Shown here: piece after piece, positions 1 to 64,000 of the stretch
How positions within the stretch are numbered: position 1 is the first letter of the stretch
How the letters are laid out: each line of letters starts with the position of its first letter
DNA from: Mobula hypostoma
Lineage: Eukaryota
DNA length: 64,000 bases
Assembly: GCF_963921235.1 (NCBI RefSeq)
Contig: NC_086108.1
Span: forward strand, 26,972,001-27,036,000
Reading direction: 5' to 3'
Notes under the pieces: model-generated
Seen by the model: the letters and a program-made list of their open reading frames with translations, nothing else
What the model was told of the DNA's origin: nothing
Database searches by the model: none
Position numbers and translations under genes: made by a program

Positions 1-2513
1 AGCCGGATGACAGGCTGACAGATGCGCCCAAGGCTTGGCAGAAGGCCTTCCATACTTGCAAGACAGACAGGGGACCTCGATTGGAGACGATGTCTGCAGG
101 GATTCCGTGGAGGTGGAAGATGTGGCGGACGAGAAGATCTGCGGTTTCCTGAGAGGAAGGAGGTTTAAGGAGGGCTACGAAGTGCACCGCCTTAGAGAAC
201 CGGTCTATCACGGTGAGGACAGTGGTGTTTCCGCGGGAAGGGGGTAGACCGGTGACGAAGTCTAAGGCGATGTGTGACCAGGGGCGACCAGGGACAGGTA
301 GAGGACGAGGTAGCCCCGCAGATGGTCGATGAGAAGCCTTTCCCCGGGTACAGATGGAACAAGCTGAGACTTAAGAACGGGTGTCCCCCTCCATGGACGG
401 CCACCAAAAGTACTTCCTCAGGAGAGCCAGGGTCCGATCACTCCCAGGGTGGCAGGCAAACCGGGATGTGTGCCACCACTGGAGAATCTGGGACCTGATG
501 GAGGCGGGCACGTACAGGCAATCACCGGTCCATTGCCCCGGTCGGGGTCGTCCCACTGGGCTTCCTTTACTTTAGCCTCGATCTCCCAAGTGAGGGTGGC
601 CACCATGCAGGAGGGTGGGCGGATAGTCTCGGGACTGGATGTGTCATCCTTGGAGTCATGCTGGCGGGACAGCACATCTGGCTTCCCGTTCTTGAATCCT
701 AGATGGTACATGAGGGTAAACCTGAACCGACCAAAGAATAATGCCCTACGGGCCTGGCGAGAATTCAGACGTTTGGTGGTCTGGATTTATTCAAGGTTCT
801 TATGGTCTGTCCAGACGATGAATGGGTGCTCCGCCCCCTCCAACCAGTGCCTCCATTCTTCCAATGCCAGTTTGACCGCCAGTAGCTCCAGTTCCCCACG
901 TCGTAATTTCGTTCAGCGGGAGACAGTCGGCGAGAAAGGAAGGCACAAGGATGTAGTTTCTGATCCGGGCCCGAACGTTGGGACAGTACCGCTCCCACCC
1001 CGGAGTCGGAGGCGTCAACATCCACAATGAATTGACAGGAGGGGTCCGGTTGAATCAGAACGGGAGCAGACGTGAAGTGCCTCTTTAGTTCCGCGAATGC
1101 TGAGTCCGCCTCGGAGTTCCACAGGAAAGGTGTGGCAGGTGAGGTAAGTCGGGTCAGAGGAGCCGCCACCTGACTGTAGTTTCTGATGAACCGGCGATAG
1201 AAGTTCGCAAACCCCAGGAGCCGTTGGAGTTGCTTGCGGTCCGTGGGTTTGGGGCACTCCATCACAGCCCGGATCTTCTCGGGATCAGCCCTTACCTGTC
1301 CGCTCTCGATGATATAACCTAGGAAGCTGACCGAAGGGACATGGAATTCGCACTTCTCCGCCTTTACGAATAACTTATTCTCCCCCAGTCTCTGCAGGAC
1401 TTGACGGACATGAAGAACGTGTTGCTGGGGACTGCTGGAAAAGTTTAGGATGTCATCCAGATAGACAAACACAAAGCGGTTAATAAAGTCTCTTAGTACA
1501 TCGTTAATCAAGGCTTGAAAGACTGCAGGGGCATTGGTGAGGCCAAAAGGCATGACCAAGTACTCGACATGGCCTAAAGGGGTATTGAATGCTGTCTTCC
1601 ACTCGACCCTCTCCCTTATTCGGACCAGATGGTAGGCGCTTCGTAGGTCCAGCTTCGAGAAGATGGCGGCTCCGTGAAGTGGTTCGAACGCAGAACTTAT
1701 CAGAGGCAGTGGGTACTTGTTCTTTATGGTTATATGATTTAGGCCTCGATAGTCGATGTAGGGACGTAGGGAACCATCCTTCTTCCCCACGAAGAAGAAC
1801 CCTGCGCCCACCAGGGAGGATGACAGTTGGATGATTCCCGCTGCGAGAGATTCACTGATGTAACCCTCCAATGCTTCCCTCTCTGGCCGGGACAAGTTAT
1901 ACAGCTGACTGGTGGGCAGAAGAGCTCCGGGGAGAAGTTCGATAGCACAATCGTATGGTCGGTGTGGAGGCAGGGAAAGGGAGCGTTGCTTACTAAACAC
2001 GAGTCTCAAGTCGTGGTACTCCGCTGGAACCCAGGACAAGTCAGGGGGTTCAACTGCAGGTGAGGTTGAGGTGGTTTTCACGGGGAAAAGGTCCGACTGC
2101 AGACAGGTGGCGTGACAAAACAGACTCCAGCTGGCTATCCTCCCGGTGGACCAATCAATGCAAGGGTTGTGGCGGCTCAACCATGGGTACCCAAGGACTA
2201 TTGGGGCTTGAGGGGAGGAGATCAAGTTAAATTGCACCTGTTCCCGATGGTTCCCAGACAGGATCAAAGACAGTGGTGGGGTACAGTGAGTGATTCGGGC
2301 CAGAGGTCTTCCGTCCAGTGCCCGGGCTTCCAGGGGGGTAGTCAATGGCTCTCGAGGAATTCCGGCCTGGGTTGCTATATCTTCATCCAACAGATTCCCC
2401 TCAGCACCGGAATCTATCAAGGCAGACAAGGACAGGGACTGTTGGCTGTAGCTTACAGTGGCTTGGACTTGCATCCGGGATTGGGGGACAGAAGGGAATG
2501 TGGTCTGACTCAC
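1..2513 (-). pseudogene. pol: Disrupted pol: aspartic protease, RT, RNase H and integrase N-terminus
   Basis: 582-aa ORF 765-2513 has [38 protein letters not shown] and [12 protein letters not shown]; frameshift near 890; integrase HTSRFACHPG in ORF 371-556. Confidence 0.93.
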
Positions 2514-2524
2514 CAGGGTCCCCC

Positions 2525-3416
2525 TTAGGGAACAGGTGTCATGAACATGGCCAGACCGACCACAATAGAAGCAATCCCCTGCTCTTAATCTCCGGAGCCA
2601 CTCGGAGGGAGAAAGACGGCTCCGTCCCAGCAGAATTCCTGTTGTTTCCGTCCCAGCTACATTGGTTCCTCTCCCGGGGTGGTGGAAACGGCCGGGCTGG
2701 ATGCTATCCTAGGAGTGGGAGGAGGAGAGAGGTTAGGGCTAGGAGTAAATGGTAAAGCATGCCGTGGGGTGGCCAAAGGATGACCGGTTCTCTCCCTCTG
2801 TCGTTCTCGGAGTCAGCCGCTAGCGTCCGGAACTCCACGGAGTATTCTGCAACTCTACGTGAGCCTTGATGGAGGGTGAGTAGCCGCTTAGCGGCATCTT
2901 TACCGCAGACGAGATGGTCAAAAATCTTCCTTATTTCTGATCCGAAAGTGGGGAAGGAAGAGCAGGTCTCTGGCTGATTATCCCAAATTGCAGTGGCCCA
3001 CGCTAAGGCATTTCCTCATAACAACCCCAGAATGTAAGCTATTTTAGATCTGTCCGTGGCGTACGTGGATGGCTGCTGCTCGAACACCAGGGAGCGTTGT
3101 AGCAGAAAAGCCCGGCACTTCCCCAGATCTCCAGCGTAGGGCTCTGGTTCAGGGACGCGCGGCTCCCTTAGCGGACGTGTTGTTGACGCCTCGGGTGTCG
3201 CCACACAGACTGTCTGGGCTGGTCAGACGGAATTCCCGGAGTCAACGGGGTAAGATGGGTGGATACTGGGTCGACCTGTTCACTGACCTTTCTTACGTCT
3301 ACTAGCAGGTAACAGAGGTTTTCCATGACTTCCTGGAGCAGCTGATCGTGCAAGCCCAATAGGGAGTCCTGGCTGGCGAGGACTTGTTGCAGAGGATTCA
3401 TGTCCGCTGGGTTCAT
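2525..3416 (-). pseudogene. gag: Disrupted gag
   Basis: MNPADMNPLQQVL start; [23 protein letters not shown]...[12 protein letters not shown] (ORF 3016-3204); zinc knuckle [14 protein letters not shown] at about 2533-2574; broken by frameshifts and a stop. Confidence 0.85.
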
Positions 3417-5302: not shown

Positions 5303-6484
5303 CGAGGGGTGATTGATAAGTTTATGGCCTAAGGTAGAAGGAGATGAGTTATACAGCTCTTGTTACATGCACGTGCTGTTGAACTCTTTGAGTGATTATG
5401 CAGAAAGTTTGAAGTTAATAACTCATCTCCTTCTACCTTAGGCCATGAACTTATCAATCGCCCCTGCTGTGAACCACTTTCTGGAGGTCAAAGATGCCGA
5501 CTTCTACAAAGAAGGGATTTGTATGCTCCACGACTGCTGGACTAATTGTGTAAACGTAGGAGGGGACTATGTTGTGTTACGTACCCCGTAACTGGGTTGC
5601 CAAACCAGCAGAAATGGACCACTTAGTTGGAGTCTGGATTACTGGAACTAAGAAAGTTTTATTAAAGAAATAAGTAACTCAGTACTCTAATCGTAAGGAT
5701 ATAAATGCAACAGGTTAGCAATGATAAAACACACATGTACACAGAACTAGGGTAATAGGAATCAAACAAGCTCTATCGCAGTCTAGGGGTAAAATGATCA
5801 GTCTCAAGTGACGCAGAGTTCAGTTCAGCTTAGTACAGTTCGTAGTAATCGCTGTTGTGCCGTTGGAGAGAGAGAGAGAGGATGATATGCAAATCTGATT
5901 CAGACAGACCTTGGTGTTCTTCGCAGTTAGCTTTTGGGCGAACCCTTTTATGTCTTCTGTGGTCACCGACTGTGACCCCTCCGTTCCGGATACGACCATT
6001 CTTCCGCAGTGAACTCGGCACCCAGGCAAGGGTGGACACACACACCGGGTTCCTGCCGATCGTAGCTTTTCACCCTGTGCATCTATGGTCGGTTCCCTCG
6101 ACCAGACCTCCAAACTTCCACCAACTTGTGGGGGCACACCGCTTTTCCAGGGTCTCGTTATCTCGTGATCTCGTGGCGTCTGTCGTGCCTTAGTGAACCT
6201 GTTCTTTTCATCCCCCTGCTGGGGTATAGCCTGTCCATCAAACTTCAAACAGTTCAGGTTCAAAGCAATCGGTCTGTCAATATTCAGACTGGTGTCTCTT
6301 TCCGTTACCTCTCTCTCCTCTCTCATTAACATTTTGAATGTTTCTCCATTGTCTCATTTATCTCTCTCATTAGCATCAATCTTCTGATAACTTGATTTTT
6401 CGTCACAGTTGAAAAATAAATGTGCTAGATTTTCTAAAATTGACCCCTTCTACCTTAGGCCACAAGGTTATCAATCCCCCCTCG
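5303..6484 (+). mobile_element. Non-autonomous mariner-derived element interrupted by a solo LTR
   Basis: TA|CGAGGGGTGATTGATAA...TTATCAATCCCCCTCG|TA terminal inverted repeats (TIRs) with TA TSD; removing the LTR restores WTNCVNVGGDYVEK-stop, the typical mariner transposase C-terminus. Confidence 0.85.
5575..6407 (-). mobile_element. Solo LTR, family A copy 1
   Basis: TGTTACG...CGTCACA termini; 4-bp TSD GTTG (5571-5574, 6408-6411); homologous to 37902-39821; strand inferred from a minus-strand AATAAA. Confidence 0.85.
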
Positions 6485-11799: not shown

Positions 11800-13560
11800 A
11801 AGTACTCTCAGAAACCAGCTGTATCTGGAAGCTGACTTCAGCAGTCCTACTGAGCAGCATTTTTTTTAACAGAAACTATTCATTGATACTGGGGTCATAT
11901 TCTGCCAGAGTCACTCATTTCCAGACTGGGGTACAGACTTGGTCCAAACATAGACCAATGGAAAATAACAGAGGCAAGTTTGACCAGGTGTGGCATCAAA
12001 CAGCCCTGATTCATGACTCAAAGTTGCTGGTGAACGCAGCAGGCCAAGTAGCATCTATAGGAAGAGGCGCAGTTGACGTTTCAGGCCGAGACCCTTCGTC
12101 AGGACGAAGGGTCTCGGCCTGAAACGTCGACTGCGCCTCTTCCTATAGATGTTGCTTGGCCTGCTGCGTTCACCAGCAACTTTGATGTATGTTGCTTGAA
12201 TTTCCAGCATCTGCAGTATTCCTGTTGTTTTCTGATTCATGACTCATGTCTTTCCATCATCTATGTGGCGTGCCATGTACACATACTCGGCTGACTGAAG
12301 GTTCAGCCGCACTCAGGAACTTGATGCCCCTTGGGCCAAAGCAGCTTCATGGAGAAAGGCCATTGACAAGAGAGCTAAATATGTTTAGACAAAGAACATA
12401 ACTAGGAGTAACATTTGAAATAATGCCATGGGTTGAGCTGATTTGCCTCCAACAACTAAAACCATCTTCTCCTGCCCGGCGAAACTCCCACTGGTGAAGT
12501 TATCGCCTGATTGCCAGTGACTTCTATTTGACAGGGGCTGCTTATTGCCACCCTTGGTCCAACACTGTTCCACGTCATGGGTATTCACTCTCACAATGCC
12601 TCTGCAATTTAGCTTTGGTTCATGTTTGGTCCAAGAATGAAGCACCAGTGTGGAGATGGTTAACCCTGACAGAATATAATCCCGGAATAAGTGGGCAGTT
12701 CTTAGTGAATAAATGCTGCTCAGTAGTACTTACAGCTGGTAACTGAGAGTACTCGAATGGGACAATAACTGGTTCAATTGAATTTGTGCTGCTTTCTGTG
12801 GGCAACACACTTGCATGGAACTTTATCAGGTGCTTGCAGCTCCACTGGAGCATACTGATGAGAGGTATGCTGTACCTTCACCATCACATTGAAAATATTT
12901 TCAAGTCATAGCATGCGTCCTTTGTTTTGTCCCAAGATCTCAGTGACGCTATCGACAGTGAATCAAAACTGGCCACACTGACCTCAGTTGATGGGAGGAA
13001 CAAGGTGAATCATCTGCTTGATACACCTGGATGCTGCACTCTGCTCTTTAGTACTGACTTGCTGGACTCTGTCATCACTGAGGAATGTTCGTTGGTACTG
13101 CTGCTTCCGTTGGCAGCTTTATAACCCAGCACTTCTCAGGATGGGATGTTGCAGGAGCTTTGCTTTGATGCATTGGTTTTGGGACAACTTATCTCTGGCT
13201 ATTGTATGCTGCTAGCATGGAAATGATCATGAGATGTGGATCCTGATTTTGCAATCTTATATTCTGGTATTTCCAGTGTTATTTCTTGCATGATCCTCTG
13301 TCTTCTTACAGTATGTTAGTAGTGTTGGTATCCTTGTTTCATGGTGGCAGTAGATTGAGTTTTATAATAGGTACTGAAGTTGGAGATTGCAGTGGAATGT
13401 AATGCTGCTGATGCTGATGGCCCTTAATAGATTCCCAGTTGTAAATTGGCAGACATTTTCCATATTCTGCCATATGGTGCAATGGTAGTGCCACACAATG
13501 TAGCAGACAGTGCCCTTAGTGCGAAGATGGTACTTTGTTACATTGTTGTGTGGTCAGTCC
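11800..13560. mobile_element. Highly decayed LINE RT fragments in opposite orientations
   Basis: Plus FDQVWHQ at about 11980-12000; minus WTK..LNCRGIVRV...QEKMVLVVGGKSAQ (ORF 12385-12645) resembles the RT region upstream of GVPQGS. Confidence 0.5.
12021..12231. mobile_element. Minimal palindromic PLE insertion
   Basis: 80-bp inverted arms (12021-12100, 12103-12182) of the PLE 3' repeat plus tail; 15-bp TSD ctgattcatgactca (12006-12020, 12232-12246). Confidence 0.9.
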
Positions 13561-21783: not shown

Positions 21784-23750
21784 TTTTTTTAATACTTTAT
21801 TTTCAAAACAAAAACAATGAAATCCACAAGAACATACCAGCTCAGACATGTGTAAGAATGAAATAAGCACAAAAAAATGGGACATAACATTCGAGGGATG
21901 CCTATTGTACAAAGTGCTCAAAAATGCTAAACGTTAAATCTCAAATGAGGGCCATGAGAAATCAGCTGGGGGGAAAGCCCCCGGCCTCGTCCAGGTAGGC
22001 AAGAAATGGATCCCAGAGAGCCAAAAAATTTTTAATTGAATTGGTTCTCGAGAACCTAAGTTTCTCCATCTGTATAACTGAGATCATATCAGTCATCCAT
22101 CGCCGAAAGGAAGGGGGAGAGGGTGATTTCCATTCCCTCAAGATAAGTCTTTTGGCGACAATCATCCCCAGCATCAGAGACAGTTGTACGGCTGCAGGGA
22201 AACAAATAGTAGATTGCGAGCAGCCAAAGATGGCGAGACCAGCTTCCAAGGGGAAGGATCTTTTATAGGCCTTCGAATATCAGTCGAATATTTTGGACAA
22301 AAATCCAGTCAGTAATGGGCAAAACTAAAAGGTGTGTGACAACGTGGCTTTCGTCCCTTGGCATCTATCACGCATTGGCAAGACAGAAGGGTAAATCCTG
22401 TGCAATCTAAGTTTAGAGTAGTGGAGACGGTGGACAACTTTAAACTGGATCAGTTGGTGTCTGCTGTTAACAGGGCACACCTGTATCATAGACAAACTCT
22501 TGTCCCAGGCAGCTTCAGATAATTCAATACCCAACTCCTCTCTCCAGGCGTCTCTAATCTTCACAGTAGACGCTACAGTGCAATCATCAAACAAACATAC
22601 AAACTTAGAAACGAGATGCCTGGAGTCAGGAGGGTTCTTTAAAATATCAAAAAACATATGTTTCCCTGGAAGGATTTCAGAATTACAAATCCTAGGTTGA
22701 ATGTAGTGTCTAATTTGTAAGTAACGAAAAAAGTGCGACTGAAGTAGCTCAAATTTCTCTTTCAGCAGACTAAATGTTGCAAACCGTCCCCCTATGTACA
22801 GGTCTTCAATAGAAACTAGATCCTTCTCCCTCCAAGCATGGTAGGTTTTATCTGGCCATGAGGGTAGAGAGGATTGATTGAAACAGATTGGTATTTGTAC
22901 AGAGGTCTCTGGTAAATTCAGAATGTTCCTAATCTGATTTAGAATTCTGACGGAATTTTTCAAAACAAAACTCCAACTTTTTGAAGTCCCAGGCTTTTCT
23001 AACTTAGAAAACAGCATGGCTGACAAGGAGGAATTGACAACAGAGTTAGACTCCATACGTAGCCACAAGTGGGCCCCAGGGACTAGATTATCTGGAGCCC
23101 TCTGTTGCCAAAACATTAAAGCCCTAGCATTGACAGCCCAATAATAGTGTCTGAATACAGGTAATCCCAGCCCTCCTTCAGACTTGGGCTTTTGTAAATG
23201 AATTTTCAAAATCCTGTGATTCTTATAATTCCAGATATAAGACAAAATTATGGAGTCGAATTCTTTAAAGAAGGCTGATGTAAGAAAAATGGGGAGATTT
23301 TGCCAAAGGTAGAGAAATCTCGGAAGGGAAAACATTTTCATTGAATTTATTCGACCAATCATGGACAGAGGTAGGGATTTCCAACTTTCTATATTCTGTT
23401 TAAGTTTTGAAATAAATTCCACGAAGTTTAATTTAAATATTAATTTAGGATCTTTGGGGATTGCCAAGATAAGTAAAGCAATCTTTAACTACTTTGAACG
23501 GGACGCTTTCCAAAAAACCCCACATGTAGACGTTGGAGAGGGGCACAAAGTCACTTTTTGTCCAATTGATTTGAGTATCCCGATAGTCTGCCAAAAGAGG
23601 TGATTAAATCTAGAAGAAGGGGGACTGACTTTTCTGAGTTTTGTAAGTAGAGTATCACATCGTTGGCATATATATTCAATCTTTGACCAAAATCTCAGAC
23701 TTAGTACAGTCAAATTGAAATGACCCTGATTTTTTCTGTGGGTAAAATCC
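21784..23750 (-). mobile_element. 5'-truncated L1-clade LINE (ORF2 3' half)
   Basis: IYANDVILY at about 23650-23680; ORF 22325-23467 has WKSLPLSMIGRIN, LPRFLYL, GGLGLP, FFRYLQIRH, IQFKVVHR; AATAAA and A-tail at 21784-21802. Confidence 0.9.
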
Positions 23751-29755: not shown

Positions 29756-30057
29756 GATTGGCAAGTTACAGCAACACCTTTCAATGTGTTGCTGATTTGT
29801 GCCTCAAGAGATGTGTATGGTAAAGGGCTTTCTCACTGAAACTGGTGTGGGGCTTTTCCACAGGGACATCTACTTGATAAAAGACCGGACAATGATCGGG
29901 TCAGTGCTAACCTTGACATTAACTGCAAACTCGGGTTGGCATTGTAACTAGGAGAGCACAGAGAAGACGTGAAGGTAACTATTAACAACCAGGGCAAAAA
30001 CTATGCTTGAAATTCTTATCAGTTTTCTAGCCTGAACATAAATCAGCACAAGATTAG

Positions 30058-30795
30058 AACAGAAAATGCTAGAAATACTCAGCTGGTCAGGTTGCTGTGG
30101 TGGGAAGAGAAACAGAGCTAACATTTCAAGTCAAAGACCCTTCATCAGAACTGAGCAGAAGACAAAATAAACTTGTAAAGCTGCAGGGATGGTAGTAGAC
30201 AGGTGCTGTCAACAGCTCCTACATTCTTTTGTCCATGTTCTCAATCTCCAACTGCTCCTATTCACTCATTGAACAGATAACCTTGTTTACATTTGATCCC
30301 CATGATCACCAAGACTTTACCCCATGAAAGACTTTAACTTCTTCCTGGAACCTAGGAAATTTCTTTTAGATGTACAGGATTATAAGAGGCATAGATAGGA
30401 GTAGATTGCCAGCGCCTTTTCCCCAAGGTGGCAATGGCTAATACCAGAGAGCATCCATTTCAGAATGGGGAGATGTCAGAGGTAGGTTGACTTTTAACCA
30501 GAGAGTAAAGCACTACCATGGGTAGTTTGTAGAGGTAGGTTATAAACGGACATTTTAAAGAGTCTTAGATAGAGGTTTATGGGCTGTGTAGAAAGGAAGG
30601 GATGGATTGATTGTGGAATAGATTTATATAGGTAGGCACAACATCATGGGCCAAAGTGCCTGTACTGTGCTCTATTGTTCCATGTTCTATATCCTCTCCT
30701 AGCCAGTTCTGATGAAGGGTCTTTGAGCTTAAAGCTTTAACTCTGTTTCTCTTCCCAAGATACACCCAGAGCTGCTGAGTATTTCCTGTATATCT
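30058..30795. mobile_element. Old inverted PLE-derived repeat with an internal CR1 fragment (about 30370-30690)
   Basis: Degenerate hammerhead motifs on minus (30117-30152) and plus (30705-30742), each followed outward by a PLE-like tail. Confidence 0.6.
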
Positions 30796-31611: not shown

Positions 31612-32017
31612 TTGCACAGATTTAGCATGTCATAGAAAACTTTGATAGATACACGGTGGAGAGTATCCTGACTGGTGGCATGAAAGCACCAATGGCCAAA
31701 TGGAAAAAGACTACAAGAAGTAGTGGATATAGCACAGTCCATCACAGGAAAAGCCCTCCCCACCATTGAACACATCCACAAGAAGCAGTGCAATAGGAAA
31801 GAATCACCACTCATCAAGGACCTCCACCATCCAGGTCATGCCCTCTTCTTGCTGCTAAAATCCGAAAGGAGGTATAGAAGCCTTAGGTCCCGCACCACCA
31901 GGTTCAGGAACAGTTATTACCCTTTAACCATCAGGCACCTAAATCCACATGGATAACTTCACTCACCTCAACACTGAAAAGGATTCCACAACCTATGGAC
32001 TCACTTTCAAGGACTCC
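31612..32017 (+). mobile_element. Rex1/Babar-type LINE 3' fragment
   Basis: IKDLHHPGHALFLLL.S.RRYRSLRSRTTRFRNSYYP. Confidence 0.8.
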
Positions 32018-32111
32018 GTCCGCCAGAGAGAGCAGGATCTCTCAGTGGCCACACATTTTAATTCCACGTCCCATTCCCATTTGATATGTCTATCCATGGC
32101 CTCCTCTACTG

Positions 32112-33373
32112 TCAGAAACATAGAACAGAGAATAGTACAGCACATTACAGGCCCTTTGGCCCACAATGTTGTGCCGCCCTCAAACTCTGCCTCCCATATA
32201 ACCCCCCACCTTAAATTCCTCCATGTACCTGTCTAGTAGTCTCTTAAACTTCATGAGTGTATCTGCCTCCACCACTGGCTCAGGCAGTGCATTCCACGCA
32301 CCAACCACTCTCTGAGTAAAAAACCTTCCTCTAATATTCCCCTTATCTTAAAGCCATGTCCTCTTGTATTGAGCAGTGGTGCCCGGGGGAAGAGGCGCTG
32401 GCTATCCACTCTATTTATTCCTCTTATTATCTTGTACACCTCTATCATGTCTCCTCTCATCCTTCTCCTCTCCAAAGAGTAAAGCCCTAGCTCCCTTAAT
32501 CTCTGATCATAATGCATACTCTCTAAACCAGGCAGCATCCTGGTAAATCTCCTTTGTACCCTTCCCAATGCTTCCACATCCTTTCTATAGTGAGGCAACC
32601 AGAACTGGACACAGTACTCCAAGTGTGGCCTAACCAGAGTTTTATAGAGCTGCATCATTACATCGCGACTCTTAAACTCTATCCCTCGACTTATGAAAGC
32701 TAACTCCCCATAAGCTTTCTTAACTACCCTATCTACCTGTGAGGCAACTTTCAGGGATCTGTGGACATGTACCCCCAGATCCCTCTGCTTGTCCACACTA
32801 CCAAGTATCCTGCCATTTACTTTGTACTCTGCCTTGGAGTTTGTCCTTCCAAAATGTACCACCTCACACTTCTCCGGGTTGAACTCCATCTGCCACTTCT
32901 CAGCCCACTTCTTCATCCTATCAATGTCTCTCTGCAATCTTTGACAATCCTCTACACTATCTACAACACCACCAACCTTTGTGTCATCTGCAAACTTGCC
33001 AACCCACCCTTCTACCCCCACATCCAGGTCATTAATAAAAATCATGAAAAGTAGAGGTCCCAGAACAGACCCTTGTGGGACACCACTAGTCAGAATCTTC
33101 CAATCTGAACGTACTCCCTCCACCACGACCATCTGCCTTCTGCAGGCAAGCCAATTCTGAATCCAACTGGCCAAACTTCCCTGGATCCCATGCCTTCTGA
33201 CATTCTGAATAAGCCTACCATGTGGAACCTTGTCAAATGCCTTACTAAAATCCATATAGATCACATCCGCTGCACTATCCTCATCTATATGCCTGGTCAC
33301 CTCCTCAAAGAACTCTGTCAAGCTTGTTAGACATGATCTGCCCTTCACAAAGCCATGCTGACTGTCCCTGATC
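32112..33373 (-). mobile_element. 5'-truncated CR1 (HER1-like) LINE with a largely open RT
   Basis: SQHGFVKGRSCLT, YMDFSKAFDKVPH, GVPQGSVLGP, KFADDTK, LEYCVQFW in ORF 32251-33435; ttctatgtttct tail. Confidence 0.95.
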
Positions 33374-33763
33374 AAGATGAAGCCGCACTCAGGTTGGAGG
33401 AACAACACCTTATATTCCGTCTGGGTAGCCTCCAACCTGATGGCATGAACATTGACTTCTCTAACTTCCGTTAATGCCCCTCCTCCCGTTCTTACCTCAT
33501 CCCTTATTTATTTATATGTTATTTTTATTTTTTTTCCTTTTTTCTCTCTCTCTCTCTCTGTCCCTCTCACAATAGCTCCTTGCTTGCTCTCCATCTTCCT
33601 CTGGGCTCCCCTCCCCCTTTCTTTCTCCCTAGGCCTCCCATCCCATGATCCTCTCCCTTCTCCAGCCTTGTATCCCTTTTGCCAATCCACTTTCCAGCTC
33701 TTAGTTTTATCCCTCCCCCTCCCCCTCCCACTTTCAAATCTCTTACTATCTCTTCTTTCAGTT

Positions 33764-33799
33764 AGTCCTGACGAAGGGTCTCGGCCTGAAACATCGACT
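33764..33799 (+). ncRNA. Minimal type I hammerhead ribozyme motif, GUC mutated to AUC
   Basis: agtc-CTGACGA-agggtctcggcct-GAAA-c-atc-gact. Confidence 0.65.
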
Positions 33800-33861
33800 G
33801 TACTTCTTCCAATAGATGCTGCCTGGGCTGCTGCATTCACCAGCATTTTTTGTGACAATAT

Positions 33862-35827: not shown

Positions 35828-36330
35828 CATGCAGATGCTGGAAACCCAAGCAACACACACAAGATGCTGGAGAAACTCAGTAGACCAGGCAGCATCCGTG
35901 GAAAAGAGTAAACAGTTGATATTTTGGGCTGAGACCCTTCATCAGGACTAGAAAGGAAGGGGGATAGAGTCAGACTAAGAACGTGTAGAGTGGAGGAAGA
36001 AGTACAAGGTGAAGGGTTCCTCTCTCCCTTTCTTTATTTCTTTTTGTTTTCTTCCATGGTCTTCTGTCCTCTCCTATCAGATTCCTTCTTCTCTAGCACT
36101 TTATCTCTTTCACCAATCAACTTCCCAGATCTTCACTCCACCCTCCTCCCAAGTTCACCTATCACCTGCCACTTTATACTTCTTCCTCTCCTCTCCCCAC
36201 CTCTTATTCTGAGTCCCTCCACCTTCCTTTCCAGTCCTGATGAAGGGTCTTGGTCCAAAACAGTAACTGTTTACTCTTTTTCATGGATGCTGCCTGGCCT
36301 ACTGAGTTTCTGCAGCATTTTGTGTGTGAT
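35828..36330. mobile_element. Older inverted PLE 3'-repeat pair
   Basis: Minus arm 35828 to about 36010 and plus arm about 36015-36330, each with a decayed ctgatgaagggtct hammerhead. Confidence 0.75.
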
Positions 36331-38666
36331 GCTTTGGGTTCTTCATGCACTCTATATTATCCATGTGGTAGGTGGAAAGCAACCACTTTGGTACCACCTG
36401 TACTTGTTTGTTAAGTGGGCCAATATAGGTAATTGTCAGTAAACACAGATGCTCTCTATGCTTAGTTGGTCATTATTGTTGAGAGTTAATGCTTGTTACA
36501 CACCATACTTGTTTAACTGAAAGCAGGCTGTATAATAATTGCAGAAAGGAGCCAGGATGAGATTAACTTCCTGTCTAAATGACTGTCATCCGGTGGCATT
36601 AACATCAACCATCATGAAATGCTTTGAGCAGCTGGTCATGGAGCACATTAAAGCCCTACATTGGACCCTTTCCAAATCACTTATCACTTGAATTGATCCT
36701 CTGATGATACAGTAGCCTCTGCCCTCCACTCTGTCCTGTCCCACCCAGAAAATGGGGTCTCATATGTCAGGTTGCTGTTTATAGACTTCAGTTTGGCATT
36801 TAACACCATCATACCCCAGAAACTGTGGGGAACTGCCCTCTCTGTGTCACAATACTTCCCTCTGTAACTGGATTCCGGACTTGTTAATCGAAAGGCACAG
36901 TCAGTTGGTGTGAGCAGCAACATTTCTAGTCCCATTATGGGTGCTGGTGCTCCCCAGGGCTGTGTGCTCAGCCCATTGCTGTTCACACTGTTGATACCTG
37001 ACTGGGTCGCAGAATTCAGCTCAAACTGTATCATCAAGTTTGTGGGTGCCACAACCGTGGTTGGCCCCATCAACAACAATGAGTCAGAGTACAGAGGAGC
37101 GACTCATGGACTGGTGTGAAAAGAACATCTGAAGTCCGAATGTAGAGATCAAGGAAAACATTGTGGATTTCTGGAAGGCGCAGATAAACCATCCTCCTCT
37201 GCAGAGAGAGTTGTGCACCAAGCTTTTGGGAGTTCACGTCACGGATGACCTCATCTGTTCCCACAATATCACCTCCCTGTACAAGAAGGCACAGCAGTGC
37301 TTCCATTTAATGAACAGATTGGGGCAAGCAAGGCCTCCCCCACATCCATCTTAACTGAATGTTATAGGAGAACCACCAAGAGTGTCCTAACAAGCTTCAT
37401 CTTCATCTGGTATGGGAGCAGCTGAGCAACAAACCGGAAGTCCCTACAAAGGACTGTGAGAATGTCCGAGAGGATCATAGGGTCTCCCTACTATCCTTCA
37501 GGGACATTTATTAGGAGGTTATTTACACAGGGTGCTTAGTCTTATCAAGAGCCCTGCATATCCCACCCATCCACCCAACGTCTTCTTTGACTTTCTACCT
37601 TCAGTCAGGAAGCTCGGATGCATAAAGACAAGAATGGCCAGGATGGAAGAATAGCTTCTACCCTCGGGCCATTAGGCTTTTGAACTCCCTGTCATATTGC
37701 CTTTGAAGGGTCATGGGTTAATCTGTTCTGTACCTTACAATACTTAATTTATACCCTTCACTTTGTTTATTTATGCATAATCCATCTGTAGATTTTATCC
37801 TCACTTTTGTAAGTTATTGTGCGTTATATGTGTGTTATGAGTACTACTGTGTTTTACACCCTGGTTTGGAAAAACATTGTCTCGTTTGACAGTATACACG
37901 TTGTTACGTACCCGGTAACTGGGTTACCAAACCAGCCGAAATGGACCACTTGTTGGAGTCTGGATTACTAGGAACTAATAAGGTTTTATTAAAGAATAAG
38001 TAACACAGTACTCTAATCGTAAGGATAGAAATGCAACAGGTTAGCAATGATGATACACACATGTACACAGAACTAGGGTAATAGGAATCAAACCAAGCTC
38101 TATCGCAGTCTAGGAGCAAAATAATCAGTCTTAAGTGACGCAGAGTTCAGTTCAGCTTAGTACAGTTCGCAGTAATCGTTGTTGATGGGGGGATTGCAGT
38201 TTGATTCAGGCAGACCTTTGATGTCTTCACAGTTGGTTTTTCGGGCGGACCCTTTTATGTCTTCTATCCCGCTATGGTCACCGACTGTGACCCCTCCGTT
38301 CCGGATACGACCGTTCGTCCACAGTGAACCCGGCACCTAAGCAAGGGCGGACACACACACCAGGTTCCCACCGATTGTACGTTTACACCCTGTGAGTCTA
38401 TGGTCCATTCCCGCGAACCGGACCTCCAAACTCCTACCAACTTGTAGGGGACACTCCGCTCTTCCAGGGTCTCGTTATCTCATGATCTCCTGGTGTGTCC
38501 CGTGGCTAGAAAACCTGCTCTTTTTATCCCCCTGCTGGGGTATCGCCTGTCCATCAAACTTCAAACAGTTCAGGTTCAAAGCAACCGGTCTGTCAATATT
38601 CTGACAACACACATCAAAGTTGCTGGTGAACTCAGCAGGTCAGGCAGCATCTGCAGGAAGAGGTGC

Positions 38667-38702
38667 AGTCGACGTTTCAGGCCGAGACCCTTCGTCAGGA
38701 CT
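38667..38702 (-). ncRNA. Minimal type I hammerhead ribozyme, intact core
   Basis: Minus strand AGTC-CTGACGA-AGGGTCTCGGCCT-GAAA-CGTC-GACT: stem I AGTC/GACT, palindromic ACGT stem III, GUC site. Confidence 0.85.
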
Positions 38703-39548
38703 AACTGAAGGAGGAGTGAGTAAGGGATTTGAAAGTTGGAGGGGGAGGGGGAGATCCAAAATGATAGGAGAAGACAGGAGGGGGAGGGATAGAGCCGAGA
38801 GCTGGACAGGTGATAGGCAAAAAGGGATACGAGAGGATCATGGGACAGGAGGTCCGGGAAGAAAGACAAGGGGGGGTGGGACCCAGAGGATGGGCAAGAG
38901 GTATATTCAGAGGGACAGAGGGAGAAAAAGGAGAGTGAGAGAAAGAATGTGTGCATAAAAATAAGTAACAGATGGGGTACGAGGGGGAGGTGGGGCCTTA
39001 GCGGAAGTTAGAGAATATGAGGGGGAGGGAGACCGCTTTGCTGAACACTACGCTCTGTCCGCCAGAGAAAGCAGGATCTCCCAGTGGCCACACATTTTAA
39101 TTCCACATCCCATTCCCATTCTGACATGTCTATCCACGGCCTCCTCTACTGTAAAGATGAAGCCACACTCAGGTTGGAGGAACAACACCTTATATTCCGT
39201 CTGGGTAGCCTCCAACCTGATGGCATGAACATCGACTTCTCTAACTTCCGCTAAGGCCCCACGTCCCCCTCGTACCCCATCTGTTACTTATTTTTATGCA
39301 CACATTCTTTCTCTCACTCTCCTTTTTCTCCCTCTGTCTCTCTGAATATACCTCTTGCCCATCCTCTGGGTCCCCCCCCACTTGTCTTTCTTCCCGGACC
39401 TCCTGTCCCATGATCCTCTCGTATCCCCTTTTGGCTATCACCTGTCCAGCTCTTGGCTCCATCCCTCCCCCTCCTGTCTTCTCCTATCATTTTGTATCTC
39501 CCCCTCCCCCTCCAACTTTCAAATCCCTTACTCACTCTTCCTTCAGTT

Positions 39549-39584
39549 AGTGTTGACGAAGGGTCTCGGCCTGAAACGTCGACT
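39549..39584 (+). ncRNA. Hammerhead motif with mutated core
   Basis: agtg-TTGACGA-agggtctcggcct-GAAACGTC-gact, two substitutions relative to intact copies. Confidence 0.55.
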
Positions 39585-40657
39585 GCACCTCTTCCTACAG
39601 ATGCTGCCTGGCCTGCTGCGTTCACCAGCAACTTTGATGTGTGTTGCTTGAATTTCCAGCATCTGCAGAATTCCTGTTGTTGTCAATATTTTGAATTGTG
39701 TTTCTTTTCCGTTAATCTCTCTCACCTCTCTCATTAGCATTTTGAACGTTTCTCCATTGTCTCTCTTTATCTCATTAGCATCATTAGCATCAATTGTCTG
39801 ATAACTTGGTTTGGCATCACAACATATATAGTTAAATGACAATAAACTTGACTTGGACTCCTAACAAACTGCTATCAAGAAAACACTTAACACCATACAT
39901 ACTGTAATTCCCTGATTTCTGTGATGAAGTAAAGAGAACAACTCACAGATGCCTCTTCGCACTTGCTGTTGTTTTGTGTATAAAACATGAACAAGGAGTA
40001 AAGGATCTAAACACCATCCCCTGATAACCTGACAGTGGGATATAAAGTCTTCCTGAACTGAGTGAAAATAACATAGGGGGTACATGATGTCCTCTCTGAG
40101 AAAACAACAGTGGGCATTGAAAGTGTCTTAAACAAGCCACAGGGAATGGGGTGCATTGCCTTTCACCAAAGCATCACTGAGTCTCCAGAAACTTCCTGCT
40201 TGGACTCTTATGACTCTGAGAGACCACGTCAGAATTTATCAATTCAACAAATTATAATAAGGTATAGCATCTTTATGTTGCAATATTATGATACCATTAG
40301 TGTATGACTGGCTGTATGATCAAGGCCCTTCTTTCATAGAAGAAGCTTTAAAATCAGCTCCAGAAGGGGCATTATTTCATGTATCTAGAGTAGAAAGTAG
40401 TAGCTGATCATTTCTTTAATCCCATATTTTATTCAAACTAAACACAGCAAATACAATTGGCAAATATGTTTGTTAACTTTCCTTGTACCCTCATTGCAAC
40501 ATAATGCTCTTAAAGTAGCCTCCTTAAACAATGCACCTTGAATTGTCTGAAAGCAGGTTATGTAGGGTCAGTTCCTCAGTGTTTAGTTTCAACAGCAGCC
40601 TAGTCTGCGATTCTACCCCACAGAGATTTTGTAATGGCTACAGGGAGCAAAGTACAA

Positions 40658-41995: not shown

Positions 41996-42857
41996 TCCTG
42001 GACTCTGGAATGAGCCAACTGGAAGTATTCAATCGTGGATACATTGAGCAGCACTGTGGTAGACCTGTGGTCTTGCAACACTAGAGACCTGGTTTGGATT
42101 TTGACTGTTTGGGGTTTATACCAGTTTCTGCCAGGTGTTCCAATCCCTTCCCACGTCCATGATATGCAGATTGATGGATTAATTGGCCTCTGTAAATTTT
42201 GTTTTGTTTGATCGAGAAAAGGAAAATAACCCCATCTTGCATCACAGGTGTTTCAATCACATTGTGCGTTGACTTTAATCATTCTTTGTACCATTAAGAA
42301 AAGTTAACTCTTTCTGCTGAGAGTGTCTTCATTTTTCCTAGTTCAATGCAAACTATTGTTTTAAAAATTAAATATTTTAGTTTTAAATGGGTATTTTTGA
42401 CAGTGACAAATCAACACCTTGAGTTCCACTATGTTTTCTGTTCTTTTCCTTTATTAGCCAGGTCATGACCATGAGTTGAATCATCAGAATATTATGGGGG
42501 ACAGCAAGGAATCCCATGATTTAGAGAAGTTAAGAACATGCCTACTTGCATGAAAGGTATCATTTTCAGTTTAAGTCTTTAGATGCCTGATACTGAGAGT
42601 CACAATCAATTTACAAGGAGAAATGTATTTGGAGTGGGAGTACAGATCACATTTTGACAAAAAAAATCCAAGGTAAATAAATGGTCTTGTGGTTTGTTGC
42701 ATATTCAGGAATAATAACAAATAGAACAGTTAATACTGGAAGTAAACAACCGGTCAGGTTGCAACAGTGGACAAAGTAACAGACTTAACACTTCACCTTG
42801 AAGATCCTTATCATGAATGGGAGAGAGATAAAGCAAGCTCATTAAACTGCGGGGTTA

Positions 42858-43102: not shown

Positions 43103-43759
43103 GTTTGGGGAAAGGAGATTCTTCAGTCTGTGTAAAACCAAGATGATAGAGGGAATAAGTTGTAAATTAGGATATCTAGTTAATAAGTAAATGGTAGCAG
43201 TTAGAGAATAAGAACATAGACAAAATAAGGTAGCAGTTGAGAAATGCAAATTAGGAAAACAATCTTCCATTTCCAGAGAGAAAAAAAAGAAAAAAGGGTA
43301 AAAACAACAAACGGAGCTGAATGTCTGGTAGACACTGAGAAATCAAGTACCTGGAGTTCTAGATTCAGTATTGAGTCCAAAAGGCTGCAACATACCCAGA
43401 TTAATGATGAGGTGCTGTTCTTTATCAGTATAGTACAGGAGCTCTCAGACTAATAGTTGAGTGCACAATGGGATGCTAAAGTGCTAGGCAGCAGGAAGCT
43501 CCAGGTCACCTCTGTAGATAGAATGAAGGTGCTCCACAAAGCTGGCAATTGTGTTTGCTTTGACCAGTGTGACATAGAAACCAACCTTGGAGGAACAAGT
43601 ATAAACATTGATTCAAACCTGTCAAAATCCATGAAGTTTAGATTTGGGATTTTGAAATGAAAGATTAGAAAATGACACAATGCAATGGGACATTTCTTGG
43701 ATATTTCAGAGATAGAACTAATCGAACAAGAAAGTGTTGGGTTCATCTCAACTGCGTCT

Positions 43760-47312: not shown

Positions 47313-48893
47313 AAGATTAGTTATTTTCGCTTTGACTATAGACTCTAACATTTTAACCACAACTGTTTAATAACTAATTAACCCCTACTTCTCCACCTAC
47401 CATCTTCTCATCTTCCTCCCACTTGAACACAAAAGTTGTTTTCAAGTTTTCTTGTACCCACCCCCGGAATTCAGCTTGTTTTGAGAATTAATTTAGCAGT
47501 CATTTCTTTGTTTCCTGTTATAATTCACCATTCTAGTTGCTTTCTTCCTATTCATATAGCCATAGAAACTCTTACAGTTTGTTTTGATATTACATGCAAG
47601 TTTTCTCTTAAAATTAATTTTCTATGTTCTTATGAGCTTTTTTAAAATTTTTGCTGAGGTATGCTGAAAGCCTCCTGGTCCCTTGGCCTCCCGCTAACAC
47701 TTTTCACTCTGTATGCCCTACTTTGCAATTTATCTTTGACCTCCTTTGTTAACCTCAGATTGTGCCTCTTTCCGTAATTCTCTATCACAATGTGCTCCAG
47801 GTCATTACAAGCTACTGAGTAAAACAGAGTTTCATGCTTCAATTGCTCTGAATGCATGAACACTGTTAGCAATAGGCAAGGTGATGACCGTTGGGCACGG
47901 TAAATGCTATCATATTGCATCTAATTGCGTCATATTCTGTCCTCGTAAGGGAAAGAAAACAGCAACTTCACAGAGTTCCCATTCAGGTGCAATGCATCAC
48001 TCAGTGAGAACATGCCATCGAACCTCTAACATAACTCATGAGTTCTGTTTATGTATCGTTCCATCATGAGAGGGAGAGCTGGATAGTGTATCTTGTGCCT
48101 GCTCATCAACTCGAAATGCAATGGTGCTTCCGACAGAGGAAAGCAAATCTAATTCATTTCAATCTATTTGCATTAAAAGAATAAGTTAAAATATTTATAT
48201 TTCCCAGGTAGAAAATTTTACTGTTTCATAGACAATGGGATGAATTATTTAATGAAGTATTTATTCCAGATGCATCTCTGCAGTATATTATTTTCTTTCT
48301 TGCCCATGATAATTGATTCTTACTGGGGCTGTTATGATGTGTGCAGTGGAAATTTGTAACTAGAAGGAGAATTTTTTGGAATATCAACAGCTCAACAACC
48401 ATCATCCCAATGTTATCTACCCTAATTATTTCCTTTGACAACTACTTTACATTCTAATACTTTCTAACTCCTGCCATCATACTTTGAGAACTAATGATAG
48501 CATATCAACTAAACTGATTATATAAATACTCAAGCAAAGCACAAATCATTGGAAGAACTCAATGAATCAGACAGCACCTGTGGAGGCAGTGAATGGTCAA
48601 ATTGCAGATCAACATGCTACATCAAGACTTGTGTCTCCTTATAGATTCTTGCCTGCACTAACTTGCACGGATTAAGCATCTGAATAAAACATAAAGATTA
48701 AGATCTATGTTAAATAATACAGCATGTGATACTTGAAAGCCTATCTAATGGAAGAAATGATGCTAAAGAAGAATAACATTTATTGACGGAAGGAGCCGTG
48801 GAGTTCAGATCATATTTGAATGACATTTCCACAAAGCTGCTACTCTTAGTGGACATCACAGGCAGGAATCTTTGTTCAGTCCTTGGAGTACTG

Positions 48894-51536: not shown

Positions 51537-54500
51537 TGTAGATTTTCACAAATAAAAATGACAGAAGCATTTTATATTTAAGAGAAACCATAACAACTCA
51601 TTTATTGTACTCCAAATACTGAACACAAAGTTCAGTAAAAGAACTTTATGTAATTATGTCATCACGTCAAACCAACCTCTTAAATTGAACCCCAACTCAA
51701 TGTCGGTAGCTGTGAATCATGTTCGTTTTCACCAATTATATTAGCCTACACAGGACCCCCCAGAATTCACTAAAACTGGTATTGTGAGGCTGCTTGAAGC
51801 TCAGACAAGCTGCATGGCTCGTGCCCCACATTCCAAGGATGGAGGAATAGCAGGGGCCTTTGGCTTGTCCAGAGGTGTGTTGACACACTCATGGTCGTAT
51901 TGTGATGGCAGGGGCATGGTAGCGGAATCCTCTAAATCTTGGTGGGACGATTTAAGGCAACTCACCAAAATACATTCAGGTTTACCTACGATAAAAGTCT
52001 TCTCTCTCTATTCCATAACACAGAATGGGCTAACGTAAGAGGGCCTAAGGAATGTTGGTGTGCATCATGGTGGACAAAAACAAATGAGGCAGAATGCAGG
52101 TCAACAGGAATCAAAGAGTGCTGTAAACTATGATGGGAGATAGGAAGAGGTCCAAAGGAATTGAATTTACTGAGGAGGGTGGAACACTGTCAAGACACCA
52201 ACCAGATGGTTGTGGCATCAGGAATAAAATCACCTGGCGTAATGGCTGCCTGTATAAAAATTCAGCTGCAGACAACTGCAGGTCATCTTTTGGAGCTCTT
52301 CGGAGCACCAGCAGGACACCCGAGAGATGATCATGCCAACACTCATCTGTCAGGGAAGCCCTCAGAGCAGCCTTTAAGGAACAATGAAACCACTCGCATT
52401 AGCCATTGGTCTGCAGGTGATATACTATGGTCTGATGTAGCCTAATGCAGAGGTTCTGGGCATTTGTACCCCAGAGGTCTGATATGAATTGGGGACCATG
52501 GTCAGAGGAACTATCAGATAGGGTAACAAACCAAGCAAGCCAGGTGTTGATGAATGCCCGAGCCACACCTTTGGCTGCTGTTGATGCTGGGGGGGTGGGG
52601 GTGGCGATGTCTGGCCAACTGGTGGCATGATCCACCATCGTAAAGATGTACATGAAACCGCAGGAGGGGGAAGAGGACCAACAAGGCCCACATTGACTGG
52701 GTAAAACTGTTGCTCAGGGACCTCAAAATGTGCCAATGTTGCCTGAACATGACGGTTAATTTTTGTCCGCTGGCACTCCACACTGGCTGCACTCCAATCA
52801 CACATGTCCGTTCTAAGGCTGTGCTACACAAACTTTAGTGCAACCATTTTCTGTGAGGCCTCCTGGTCTGGATGCTAGAGGCCATGTATGGAGTCAAGAA
52901 CAGTCCACCTCCAGTTTGTGGGCACTATGGGGCAACAATGACCATTTGAGACATCGCACAGGGGAGAAATCCTTGCTTCCCCAAACTTAATGTCAGCCAA
53001 GCGTAGGCATGTGACAGCTTTTCGGTAAGCCTGGACCTCTGAGTCAGTGGCTTGGTCGACTGCCATGCTGGCATAGGCATATGTATATGGCCTCAATAAC
53101 TGGCCAAGAGAGGCAATCAGCCTTGTTGTATATCAGTTGTGAACTCTGATATGTAGGCCAGCTGGCATTGCTGCTGTGCAGACCAAGGTTCTGATATTTT
53201 AGCCATCATGTTCACAAGGGGTTTGCACAATGAAAGTTGTGAAAAGGTGACCCTCTAGAAGAAAATGAAAATGACTGACAGCCAGATTGAGACCGAGACG
53301 GTCAAACGTGCTGTACTTCCTTTCAAGGGGACAGAGCTGGTGGCTGTAGAAGGCAAGCAGCTGCCACACACCTCCGACCAACTATTCATGCACAGGACTG
53401 ACTGCATAGTCTGAAGCATCAGTAGTAATGGCTATAGGTGCGTTGGGGAGCTTATGCACCAGTACGAAGGGTCTTGGCCTGAAACGTCGACTGTACCTCT
53501 TCCTATAGATGCTGCCTGGCCTGCTGCGTTCACCAGCAACTTTGATGTGTGTTGATTGGAAAGAGCTTGTTTGTATTCATCAAATATCCTGCTCGTATCC
53601 ACTGACCAGTCAACCGCATGATTAGGAGTTTGTCCTTTAATCGCACTATAGAGGGGAAGCATGAATTCAGCAGCTCGTGGAATGAAGCGATGATAGAAAT
53701 TCACCTTGCCTAAAAATTCCTGTAGCCTTTTTTAGCAGTGCGGGGTGGTGGGAAATCCATAACAACAGCTGCTTTTGATGGGAGGGGTTTTGCACCTTCT
53801 GCAGAGATACATTGGCTGAGAAAGTAAATGGTTGACAACCTGGTGTGGCATTTAGCAGGGTTAATAATCAATCCATGTTGGCTTAAGCGTTCAAAAAGTG
53901 TGCAGAGCTGAGGTACCTGTTCGGATTTGGATGCACTGATATCAAGCATGTCATCCAGGTAAACAAAAGGAAAAACTATTCCGTCAGCTGTTGAAAAGTC
54001 AGTGCTGCATTTTTCAGCTCAAATTGCATACGCAGAAACTCAAAGAGGCCACGTGGGATTACCACAGCCATTTTGGTAATGTCTTCCAAGCACATGGGTG
54101 CCTGATGGTAGTCCCTAACTAGATCAACTTTGAAAAAATTAACTTGCTGTCTAAACATACAGAAAAGACTTGGATGTGTGGGACTGGGTATTGGACTCAT
54201 TAATGCAACAGTAATAGCCACATGGGTGGCAACCATTATTGGACTTAGGGACTGTATGGAGAGGTGAAGCCCAAGGGCTAGTCCACTGGCATACAATGCC
54301 ATGCTTTTCCATGTTGGCAAACTCAGCCTTTGCAGTTACCAGGTGTTCTGGGTCCAGTCTACGTGCACAGGCATGGACTGGCGGACCAGTTGTAAAAATG
54401 TGATACTTAGCTCCATGTTTTATGACTGAGTGGAGAATGCAGGCTTGCTGAGGTTTGGGATTTCACCCAGCAGTCCAATATACTTATATGTGATGGAGTA

Positions 54501-56153: not shown

Positions 56154-56786
56154 ATAGTCAACCTAGTTAGCCTCCAACCTGATGGCATGAATACAATTTC
56201 TCTTTCTAGTAATGGAAAAAGTTCCTCCCCTTCCCCTCTTCTTCTATTGCCCACTCTAGCTTCTCACCTCTTTTCAACTGCCTCGGTCCCCTCCTTCTTC
56301 ATGTTCTCCTGTAGTCCACTCTCCTCTCCTATCAAATTCTTTCCTCTCCAGCTCTTTACCTTTTCTACCAACCCGGCTTCACCTATCCTCCTTCCCCTCC
56401 CTCACCTTTTCATTCTGGTGTCTTCCCCTTTCCAGTCCTGAAGGAGGAGCTTGGCCAGAAACATCGACTGTTTATTCATTTCCATAGATGTTGCCTGACC
56501 TGCTTAGTTCCTCCAGCTCTATATTTCCAGCATCTGCAGAATTTCTCATGTTTAAGATACTGTCTATGTTAATTTACTTTTTCAATTATGTCTTCATAAT
56601 TTCACAGATTTCAGGCAAATTGGTAAAAATGTAACTTTTGGAGCTCCTAATTGTGAATCATTTACTAATCAATTGAAATCAGAGGGGTAAATTAATAATA
56701 CCTAGGTTTATAAAACTCAAGCCCTCGAACCATAGTAACCCTGTCAGTGCCTGGAGCTCAGATTAAGGATTTTGGTGAAGGAGGTC

Positions 56787-62686: not shown

Positions 62687-62788
62687 ATGCAAACAACAGG
62701 AATTCTGCAGATGCTGGAAATTCAAGCAACACACATCAAAGTTGCTGGTGAATGCAGCAGGCCAGGCAGCATCTCTAGGAAGAGGTAC

Positions 62789-62824
62789 AGTCGACGTTTC
62801 AGGCCGAGACCCTTCGTCAGGACT
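62789..62824 (-). ncRNA. Minimal type I hammerhead ribozyme, intact core
   Basis: Identical to 38667-38702. Confidence 0.85.
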
Positions 62825-63183
62825 AACTGAAGGAAGAGTTAGTAAGAGATTTGAAAGTGGGAGGGGGAGGGGGAGATCCAAAGTGATAGGAGAAGACAGG
62901 AGCGGGAGGGATGGAGCCAAGAGCTGGACAGGTGATTGGCAAAGGGGATACGAGAGGATCATGGGACAGGAAGTCCGGGGAGAAAGACAAGGGCGGGGGG
63001 AACCAGAGGGTGGGCAAGGGGTATAGTCAGAGGGACAGAGGGAGAAAAAGGAGAGTGAGAGAAAGAATGTGTGTATAAAAATAAATAACGGATAGGGTAT
63101 GAGGGGGAGGTGGGGTATTAGAGAAGTCGATGTTCATCCCATCAGGTTGGAGGCTACCCAGACGGAATATAAGGTGTTGTTCC

Positions 63184-63465
63184 TGCGTCCGGTGCTCCCG
63201 ATGTGGCCTTCTATATATTGGCGAGACCCGACGCAGACTGGGAGACCGCTTTGCTGAATACCTATGCTCTGTCTGCCAGAGAAAGCAGGATCTCCCAGTG
63301 GCCACACATTTTAATTCCACATCCCATTCCCATTCTGACATGTCTATCCACGGCCTCCTCTACTGTAAAGATGAAGCCACACTCAGGTTGGAGGAACAAC
63401 ATCTTATATTCCGTCTGGGTAGCCTCCAACCTGATGGCATGAACATCGACTTCTCCAACTTCCTC
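63184..63465 (+). pseudogene. PLE GIY-YIG endonuclease domain, 5'-truncated
   Basis: CVRCSRCGLLYIGETRRRLGDRFAEYL...PVATHFN...RLEEQHLIFRLGSLQPDGMN. Confidence 0.9.
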
Positions 63466-63768
63466 GAATGCCCCACCTCCCCCTCGTACCCCATCCGTTC
63501 CGTTATTTATTTTTATACGCACATTCTTTCTCTCACTCTCCTTTTTCTCTCTCTGTCCCTCTGACTATACCCCTTGCCCAGCCTCTGGTCCCCCCCCCCA
63601 CCTTGTCTTTCTCCCCAGACCTCCTGTCCCATGATCCTCTCAAATCCCCTTTGCCAATCACCTGTCCAGCTCTTGGCTCCATCCCTCCCCCTCCTGTCTT
63701 CTCCTATCATTTTGGATCTCCCCCTCCCCCTCCCACTTTCAAATCTCTCACTAACTCTTCCTTCAGTT

Positions 63769-63804
63769 AGTCCTGATGAGGGGTCTCAGCCTGAAACGTC
63801 GACT
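63769..63804 (+). ncRNA. Minimal type I hammerhead ribozyme
   Basis: AGTC-CTGATGA-GGGGTCTCAGCCT-GAAA-CGTC-GACT. Confidence 0.8.
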
Positions 63805-64000
63805 GCACCTCTTCCTAGAGATGCTGTCTGGCCTGCTGCGTTCACCAGAAACTTTGATGTGTGTTGCTGTGATTTTTAGACCATTAGTTAAAATTTCAAA
63901 ATAAATTTACCACCAAAGTTCAATATACTACTTGAGATTCATTTTCTCACAGGCATTTACATGGAAAAAAGAAATACAATAGAATTCCATGAAAAACTAT

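Follow-up and report, generated by a model that had tools for sequence, protein, structure and literature searches.

The analysed window, 64,000 nt of Mobula hypostoma contig NC_086108.1 (forward-strand positions 26,972,001 to 27,036,000), contains a Penelope-like element (PLE) family whose copies carry a 36-nt motif with the form of a minimal hammerhead ribozyme (min-HHR). The copy flagged in the original prediction is located exactly at 38667-38702 on the minus strand and comprises the following parts:

38667..38702, minus strand: minimal type I hammerhead motif, the flagged copy, within the inverted arm of insertion A
38699..38702, minus strand: stem I, 5' strand, 4 nt
38692..38698, minus strand: core C3 to A9, followed by one extra A at 38691
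38679..38690, minus strand: stem II, 4 bp with a basal G10.1·U11.1 wobble and a 4-nt loop
38671..38678, minus strand: GAAA core, loopless palindrome (38675-38672) and C17
38667..38670, minus strand: stem I, 3' strand

The original prediction described correctly both cores, the 4-bp stem I, the GUC triplet and the ACGT palindrome without a loop; the G·U-closed stem II was absent from that description. Stem II is followed by GAAA, C15.2-G16.2-U16.1 and C17, with the 3' strand of stem I last, and hammerhead numbering places the predicted cut site of the flagged copy between 38671 and 38670. An identical second copy lies at 62789-62824 (minus), and the four variants also listed in the prediction were recovered at 63769 (plus, 3 mismatches), 33764 (plus, 1 mismatch), 39549 (plus, 2 mismatches) and 12071-12106 (minus, 2 mismatches). 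The copies at 38667, 62789 and 63769 retain the complete core of 11 positions, with U16.1 present and position 17 not G. Three of the four variants are damaged: the copy at 39549 has changes at 2.1 and at core C3, the palindrome of the copy at 33764 is broken at 16.2, and stem I of the copy at 12071 is down to 2 of 4 pairs. The family is also larger than the prediction had listed. A profile search with the family 3' end finds 15 termini in the 64-kb window, three of which pass a strict minimal-hammerhead descriptor.

The original prediction had proposed a search with hammerhead models. The strict descriptor has 3 matches in the window (core starts at 38698 minus, 62820 minus and 63773 plus) versus 0 in each of 200 dinucleotide shuffles, the three matches counting as one independent event because they are copies of one family. 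The bare core pattern is weak, with 18 matches compared to a chance mean of 7.1. Rfam returned no hammerhead match over the whole window at E<=1; its two matches, below the gathering score, belong to a single miRNA model (mir-3926) on the inverted repeat of insertion B and were rejected.

For alignment, 14 of the 15 termini were used (the weakest, at 48630, was left out). The unpaired base between positions 9 and 10.1 is A in 13 of the 14 copies, and the pair 10.1/11.1 is G·U in 11, G-C in two and unpaired in one; all eight copies of the young subfamily have U at 11.1. Stem I is short and open, with 4 bp and 83% of cells paired across the 14 copies. The palindrome pair 15.2/16.2 is C-G in 7 of the 8 young copies and in none of the 6 older ones, the changes being mostly of CpG type. 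Variants inside the motif are also found in assembled public contigs (from 4 of 22 sequencing runs): among the 40 of 90 variants listed, these are N7, 11.1 and the two changes of the 39549 copy. The change of U to C at 11.1 accounts for 16-21% of the depth in three runs and for 71% in the fourth (20 records). As a listing of 40 among 90, these variants are no measure of conservation.

The copies of the family are distributed over the window as follows:

38605..39681: insertion A, a 5'-truncated Penelope-like element, arms 96% identical over 411 nt
38591..38604, plus strand: left copy of the target-site duplication of insertion A, 14 bp with 1 mismatch (right copy at 39681-39694)
39036..39254, plus strand: GIY-YIG endonuclease frame, C-terminal part with stop codon
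39549..39584, plus strand: hammerhead of insertion A's direct arm
39646..39681, plus strand: tail of approximately 36 nt, on one arm only
12018..12232: insertion B, short arms back to back with the junction inside the hammerhead 5' end, duplication of approximately 15 bp
62692..63866: insertion C, inverted arms with GIY-YIG frame 63184-63462, 14-15 bp duplication, left arm tailed
53464..53558, plus strand: short copy beginning inside the 5' core
33764..33799, plus strand: hammerhead copy with broken palindrome, in the element at 32014-33850
35831..36341: inverted pair, older, whose hammerheads at 35914-35949 (minus) and 36233-36268 (plus) are decayed
56434..56469, plus strand: older hammerhead copy, decayed, with a GIY-YIG fragment upstream
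30035..30783: inverted pair, older and from a more distant subfamily, with matches at 30161-30035 (minus) and 30686-30783 (plus)

The motif copy of insertion A's direct arm lies on the GIY-YIG coding strand and starts 295 nt downstream of the stop codon, a position that bears out its attribution in the original prediction to a Penelope-like element. The 93-aa product of the GIY-YIG frame in insertion C, used as a query, matches 17 of 67 candidate proteins. The best match (97% identity) is P0001, a predicted protein of Mobula hypostoma, followed by proteins of Hypanus and Leucoraja. In P0001, C-terminal motifs of reverse transcriptase (RT) occur together with a C-x4-C-x2-C linker and a weak match to GIY-YIG; in both P0001 and the relative P0003, as judged by eye, the RT motifs precede the endonuclease. 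The GIY-YIG matches have E = 0.031 for the window fragment and E = 5e-4 and 8e-4 for the full relatives, all below the cut-off of Pfam. No PLE RT is present in the 64-kb window, where the copies are truncated. By anatomy and homology, the carrier is thus identified as a GIY-YIG Penelope-like retroelement with the motif in its 3' pseudo-LTR. Neptune and Nematis elements are both marked by a linker of the form CX2-5CxxC that separates RT from endonuclease (PMC8557442). Truncation leaves the window copies without linker or RT, and the clade assignment therefore rests on the relative P0001: the carrier probably belongs to the Neptune clade, which shares the linker with Nematis.

Several further observations concern the coding sequence. 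The predicted host proteins P0003 and P0005, named as kinase-domain protein and mucin-2 isoforms, include coding sequence of the element, which would reflect either artefacts of annotation or exonisation of copies. Contigs from metagenomes, genomes and viruses gave no match in pattern scans, and protein-based scans gave 395 pattern matches in metagenomes and 34 in viral contigs, none of them a confirmed relative. A much older GIY-YIG fragment with 34-39% identity to the relatives lies at 43364-43603 (minus), and several hundred bases downstream of it a decayed family-like 3' end at 42700-42800 was missed by the profile.

Insertions A, B and C share inverted arms, duplications of 14-15 bp and a tail on one arm only, features that correspond to the published PLE anatomy of pseudo-LTRs, an inverted 5'-truncated arm and a one-sided tail of 30-40 bp (PMC8557442). 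Insertion A joins an inverted arm without tail (38605-39015) to a direct arm with tail (approximately 39027-39681), and its target sequence is present only once at a paralogous empty site near 6275-6289. The empty site and the target of insertion A are located in repeat copies approximately 85% alike, at 5575-6407 and at 37902-38604 / 39682-39821, respectively. The hammerheads of insertion C are the copy at 62789-62824 and a plus-strand copy with intact core at 63769-63804; those of insertion B are the copy at 12071-12106 (minus) and one starting from 12103 (plus). In insertions E, F and H no clear target duplications were found, with 6-8 bp only. The Penelope-like copy at 32014-33850 contains an RT-bearing non-LTR insertion at 32114-33373 (Pfam RVT_1, minus, frame 32251-33507), which we take to be CR1-like. 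This insertion splits the GIY-YIG frame of the Penelope-like copy and is therefore the later event.

Of the 15 termini, none has its start at the predicted cut; three begin within the 5' end of the motif, two of them from one insertion. These represent only two independent events, and RT may be prone to stopping or folding back in this part of the hammerhead. The arm junction of insertion B (12085-12120) sits at a small inverted repeat in the hammerhead 5' end. On the other side, seven arms were projected on the 39549 copy, whose own end is 101 nt past the cut, with a local alignment that may overshoot by a few bases. Five of these arms end 57-75 nt past the predicted cut and the other two 101-104 nt past it. 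Loose ends in the public contigs, near 39643-39648 and at 39675/39681 among the 24 of 608 rows listed, coincide with these two arm-end zones, and represent ends of assembled contigs rather than of molecules. The rows listed include no accumulation of ends, which with contigs speaks neither for nor against cleavage. A further loose end before 39554 was considered as a trace of cleavage and rejected, as it is explained by the changes of the 39549 copy itself together with a divergent subfamily. The region 39581-39681 (plus) is predicted to form nested stems that include the tail, and is the part most widely shared across subfamilies. On this structure model, it may serve as a protein-binding or RT-start structure.

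We next consider conservation, using the consensus of the 8 young copies as reference, against which the 6 older copies were scored. Mismatches in the older copies affect 9/66 cells of the core, 46/150 in the rest of the motif and 120/280 in the downstream flank. The original prediction expected the core to be kept better than its flanks, and among the older copies this holds also with one arm per insertion (core 5/44 versus downstream flank 82/187, p=2e-5), with the contrast inflated because the copies were found with a profile containing the motif. At non-CpG cells of the older copies, core (6/54) and stems and loop (16/102) are not significantly different (p=0.30). In the young copies the core has 1 mismatch in 83 cells versus 24 in 376 for the flank (p=0.04); after removal of CpG sites the values are 1/67 and 21/360 (p=0.11), and the advantage of the core is not clear. 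G12, G16.2 or G1.1 are lost in older copies, mostly at CpG sites, as expected of decay after insertion. Covariation among 14 related copies is confined to one pair with a two-sided change, and 80 of 500 shuffles reach its score, which is hence not above the control. As far as sequence comparison goes, the pattern suggests that the motif was kept by selection in past master elements and is decaying in the inserted copies.

The motif is of a kind known since 2014, when min-HHRs were reported for metazoan PLEs, in their pseudo-LTRs (Cervera and De la Pena 2014, PMC4209133), and little is added in kind. It matches the published consensus position for position. Shared properties are the topology of type I, the two cores, an additional base following A9, G at 10.1, the 15.2/16.2 palindrome and the short stem I, as well as the location in pseudo-LTRs of mostly truncated elements and the occurrence of pairs on opposite strands, which are described in the same source at distances of 100-700 bp. 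Nearest in form is the Neptune motif of Acropora digitifera (PMC4209133 Fig. S3), which agrees in its core and in the bases from 15.2 to 17 and likewise has a stem II of 4 bp and a loop of 4 nt. In contrast to most published min-HHRs, in which 11.1 is usually C, the short stem II of the ray motif is closed by G·U. Nevertheless, neither this closure nor the loopless palindrome can be considered novel, as they occur in 8 and 29 of 56 published motifs, respectively. The loopless C-G-U arrangement (29/56, hand count in the supplement of PMC4209133) is the commonest published form there, not a peculiarity of the ray. Cartilaginous fish are absent from the 56 motifs and from Table S1 of PMC4209133. 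Neither a description or assay of the ray variant nor another example of this kind from a cartilaginous fish was found in the literature covered; the variant may be catalogued in subscription journals or repeat databases, which were outside the scope of the search.

A second point of comparison is the anole Poseidon element PAc (Frangieh et al. 2024, PMC11167929), whose hammerhead is reported to cut only with the protein of the element and to leave no read ends at the cut site. As in the ray, its pseudo-LTR hammerhead is located upstream of two RT start sites that bound an optional tail of 30-40 nt, inserted copies span the cut site, and targets are AT-rich. Unlike the ray element, PAc belongs to the Poseidon clade and has an ORF starting at stem II; for the ray element, the nearest full relative shows a linker of Neptune/Nematis type, and among the truncated copies no ORF start was found at the motif. 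Neptune and Poseidon are described as the most widespread groups, and retrozyme hammerheads are reported in the single chondrichthyan genome sampled (10.64898/2026.07.22.740005). Non-LTR retrozymes likewise have type I hammerheads related to those of PLE pseudo-LTRs (PMC7229834; 10.64898/2026.07.22.740005). Assignment of the ray copies to this class was rejected: such retrozymes are described as non-coding head-to-tail tandems, whereas in the window the copies lie scattered or inverted, several of them joined to GIY-YIG coding fragments. The comparison also drew on PMC6155905 and PMC2837043.

All folding energies given here are predicted and leave out tertiary contacts of the core. The minimum-energy fold of the lone 36-mer is a rod (-10 versus -6 kcal/mol for the open form) in which G5-A6-C7-G8 is paired with C15.2-G16.2-U16.1-C17, the strand of the cleavage site. 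The U at 11.1 weakens stem II by about 1.6-1.9 kcal/mol, formation of stem I is not predicted in the pseudo-LTR context, and the folding z-score of the motif is -0.37. A transcript through insertion A is predicted to fold back and to bury the motif: since the partner of the flagged copy is on the opposite strand, the locus would fold on itself as a long hairpin. A dimer in cis of the copies at 38667 and 39549 was rejected in view of their opposite strands, the broken core of the partner and this fold-back.

We consider it probable that the motif is a weak, conditional ribozyme acting on intact tandem transcripts with the help of a partner copy, of the protein or of both, while reverse transcription proceeds from uncut RNA. 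The lone motif would fold into the inactive rod; by inference from related elements, a second copy would lend a 4-bp palindromic stem III, or the protein of the element would assist, or both. Judging from the copy ends, reverse transcription would start at two sites, approximately 57-75 and 101-104 nt past the cut. Because the RNA would be uncut and the starts downstream of the cut, inserted copies would keep the whole motif, with or without the tail. The copies in the window, including the flagged one, are probably decaying 5'-truncated by-products that do not cut, and it is unlikely that the flagged copy, located in a folded-back fragment, is able to do so.

An obligate dimer of RNA only, in which two tandem copies swap strands, pair their palindromes, cleave without protein and release RNA of unit length, appears rather doubtful. 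In the model the active two-core dimer (-9.5 kcal/mol) lies approximately 19 kcal/mol above the inactive duplex (-28.3 kcal/mol), paired copies in the window are inverted rather than tandem, no terminus begins at the cut, and the anole motif is without cleavage when the protein is absent (PMC11167929). The dimer draws its appeal from the palindrome, which is self-complementary, and from a nested two-core structure that can be drawn. A stem III built by two copies, as inferred in the original prediction, is the model of 2014, in which Schistosoma dimers and trimers are weakly active (the dimer giving only low activity) and the monomer is inactive (PMC4209133), and axolotl retrozyme motifs, of canonical type, are more active as dimers (PMC7229834). 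It is also improbable that the motif is vestigial in the young subfamily, that is, inherited, or retained near the RT starts as a landmark for binding or folding, after cutting was lost. The U at 11.1 that weakens stem II is found in 8 of 8 young copies, but G·U at 10.1/11.1 occurs in 8 of the 56 published motifs (hand count) and the young consensus retains all 11 core positions. In favor of a vestigial motif, hammerhead cleavage is dispensable for insertion in vitro (PMC11167929) and Naiad elements spread without canonical hammerheads (PMC8557442). A chance resemblance of a repeat to a hammerhead agrees with the absence of a hammerhead match in Rfam, the folding z-score and the weak covariation; it is extremely improbable and largely refuted by position and consensus fit. 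The strict descriptor separates the window from 200 shuffles (one independent event), the motif is located where PLE hammerheads are known, and the likeness extends beyond the cores to the additional base following A9, to G10.1 and to the palindrome.

The motif adds a cartilaginous fish, and probably a Neptune element of a vertebrate, to the list of min-HHR carriers. The short, young and abundant family provides a test case to distinguish dimeric, protein-assisted and dispensable cleavage. A very remote prospect is that transcripts of sense copies lend stem III in trans, or are switched on by the protein of the element. Lending in trans would be possible because the family is young, near-identical and dense (15 termini, three fully intact, in 64 kb). 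If true, host pre-mRNAs would hold many latent cut sites under PLE control, restrained by the self-inhibiting rod.

Other elements in the window include an LTR-retrotransposon pol frame at 765-2708 (minus) with matches to aspartyl protease, RT and RNase H. A 387-aa frame at 22325-23488 (minus) is without Pfam match and, by eye, presumably resembles the C-terminal part of a LINE ORF2.
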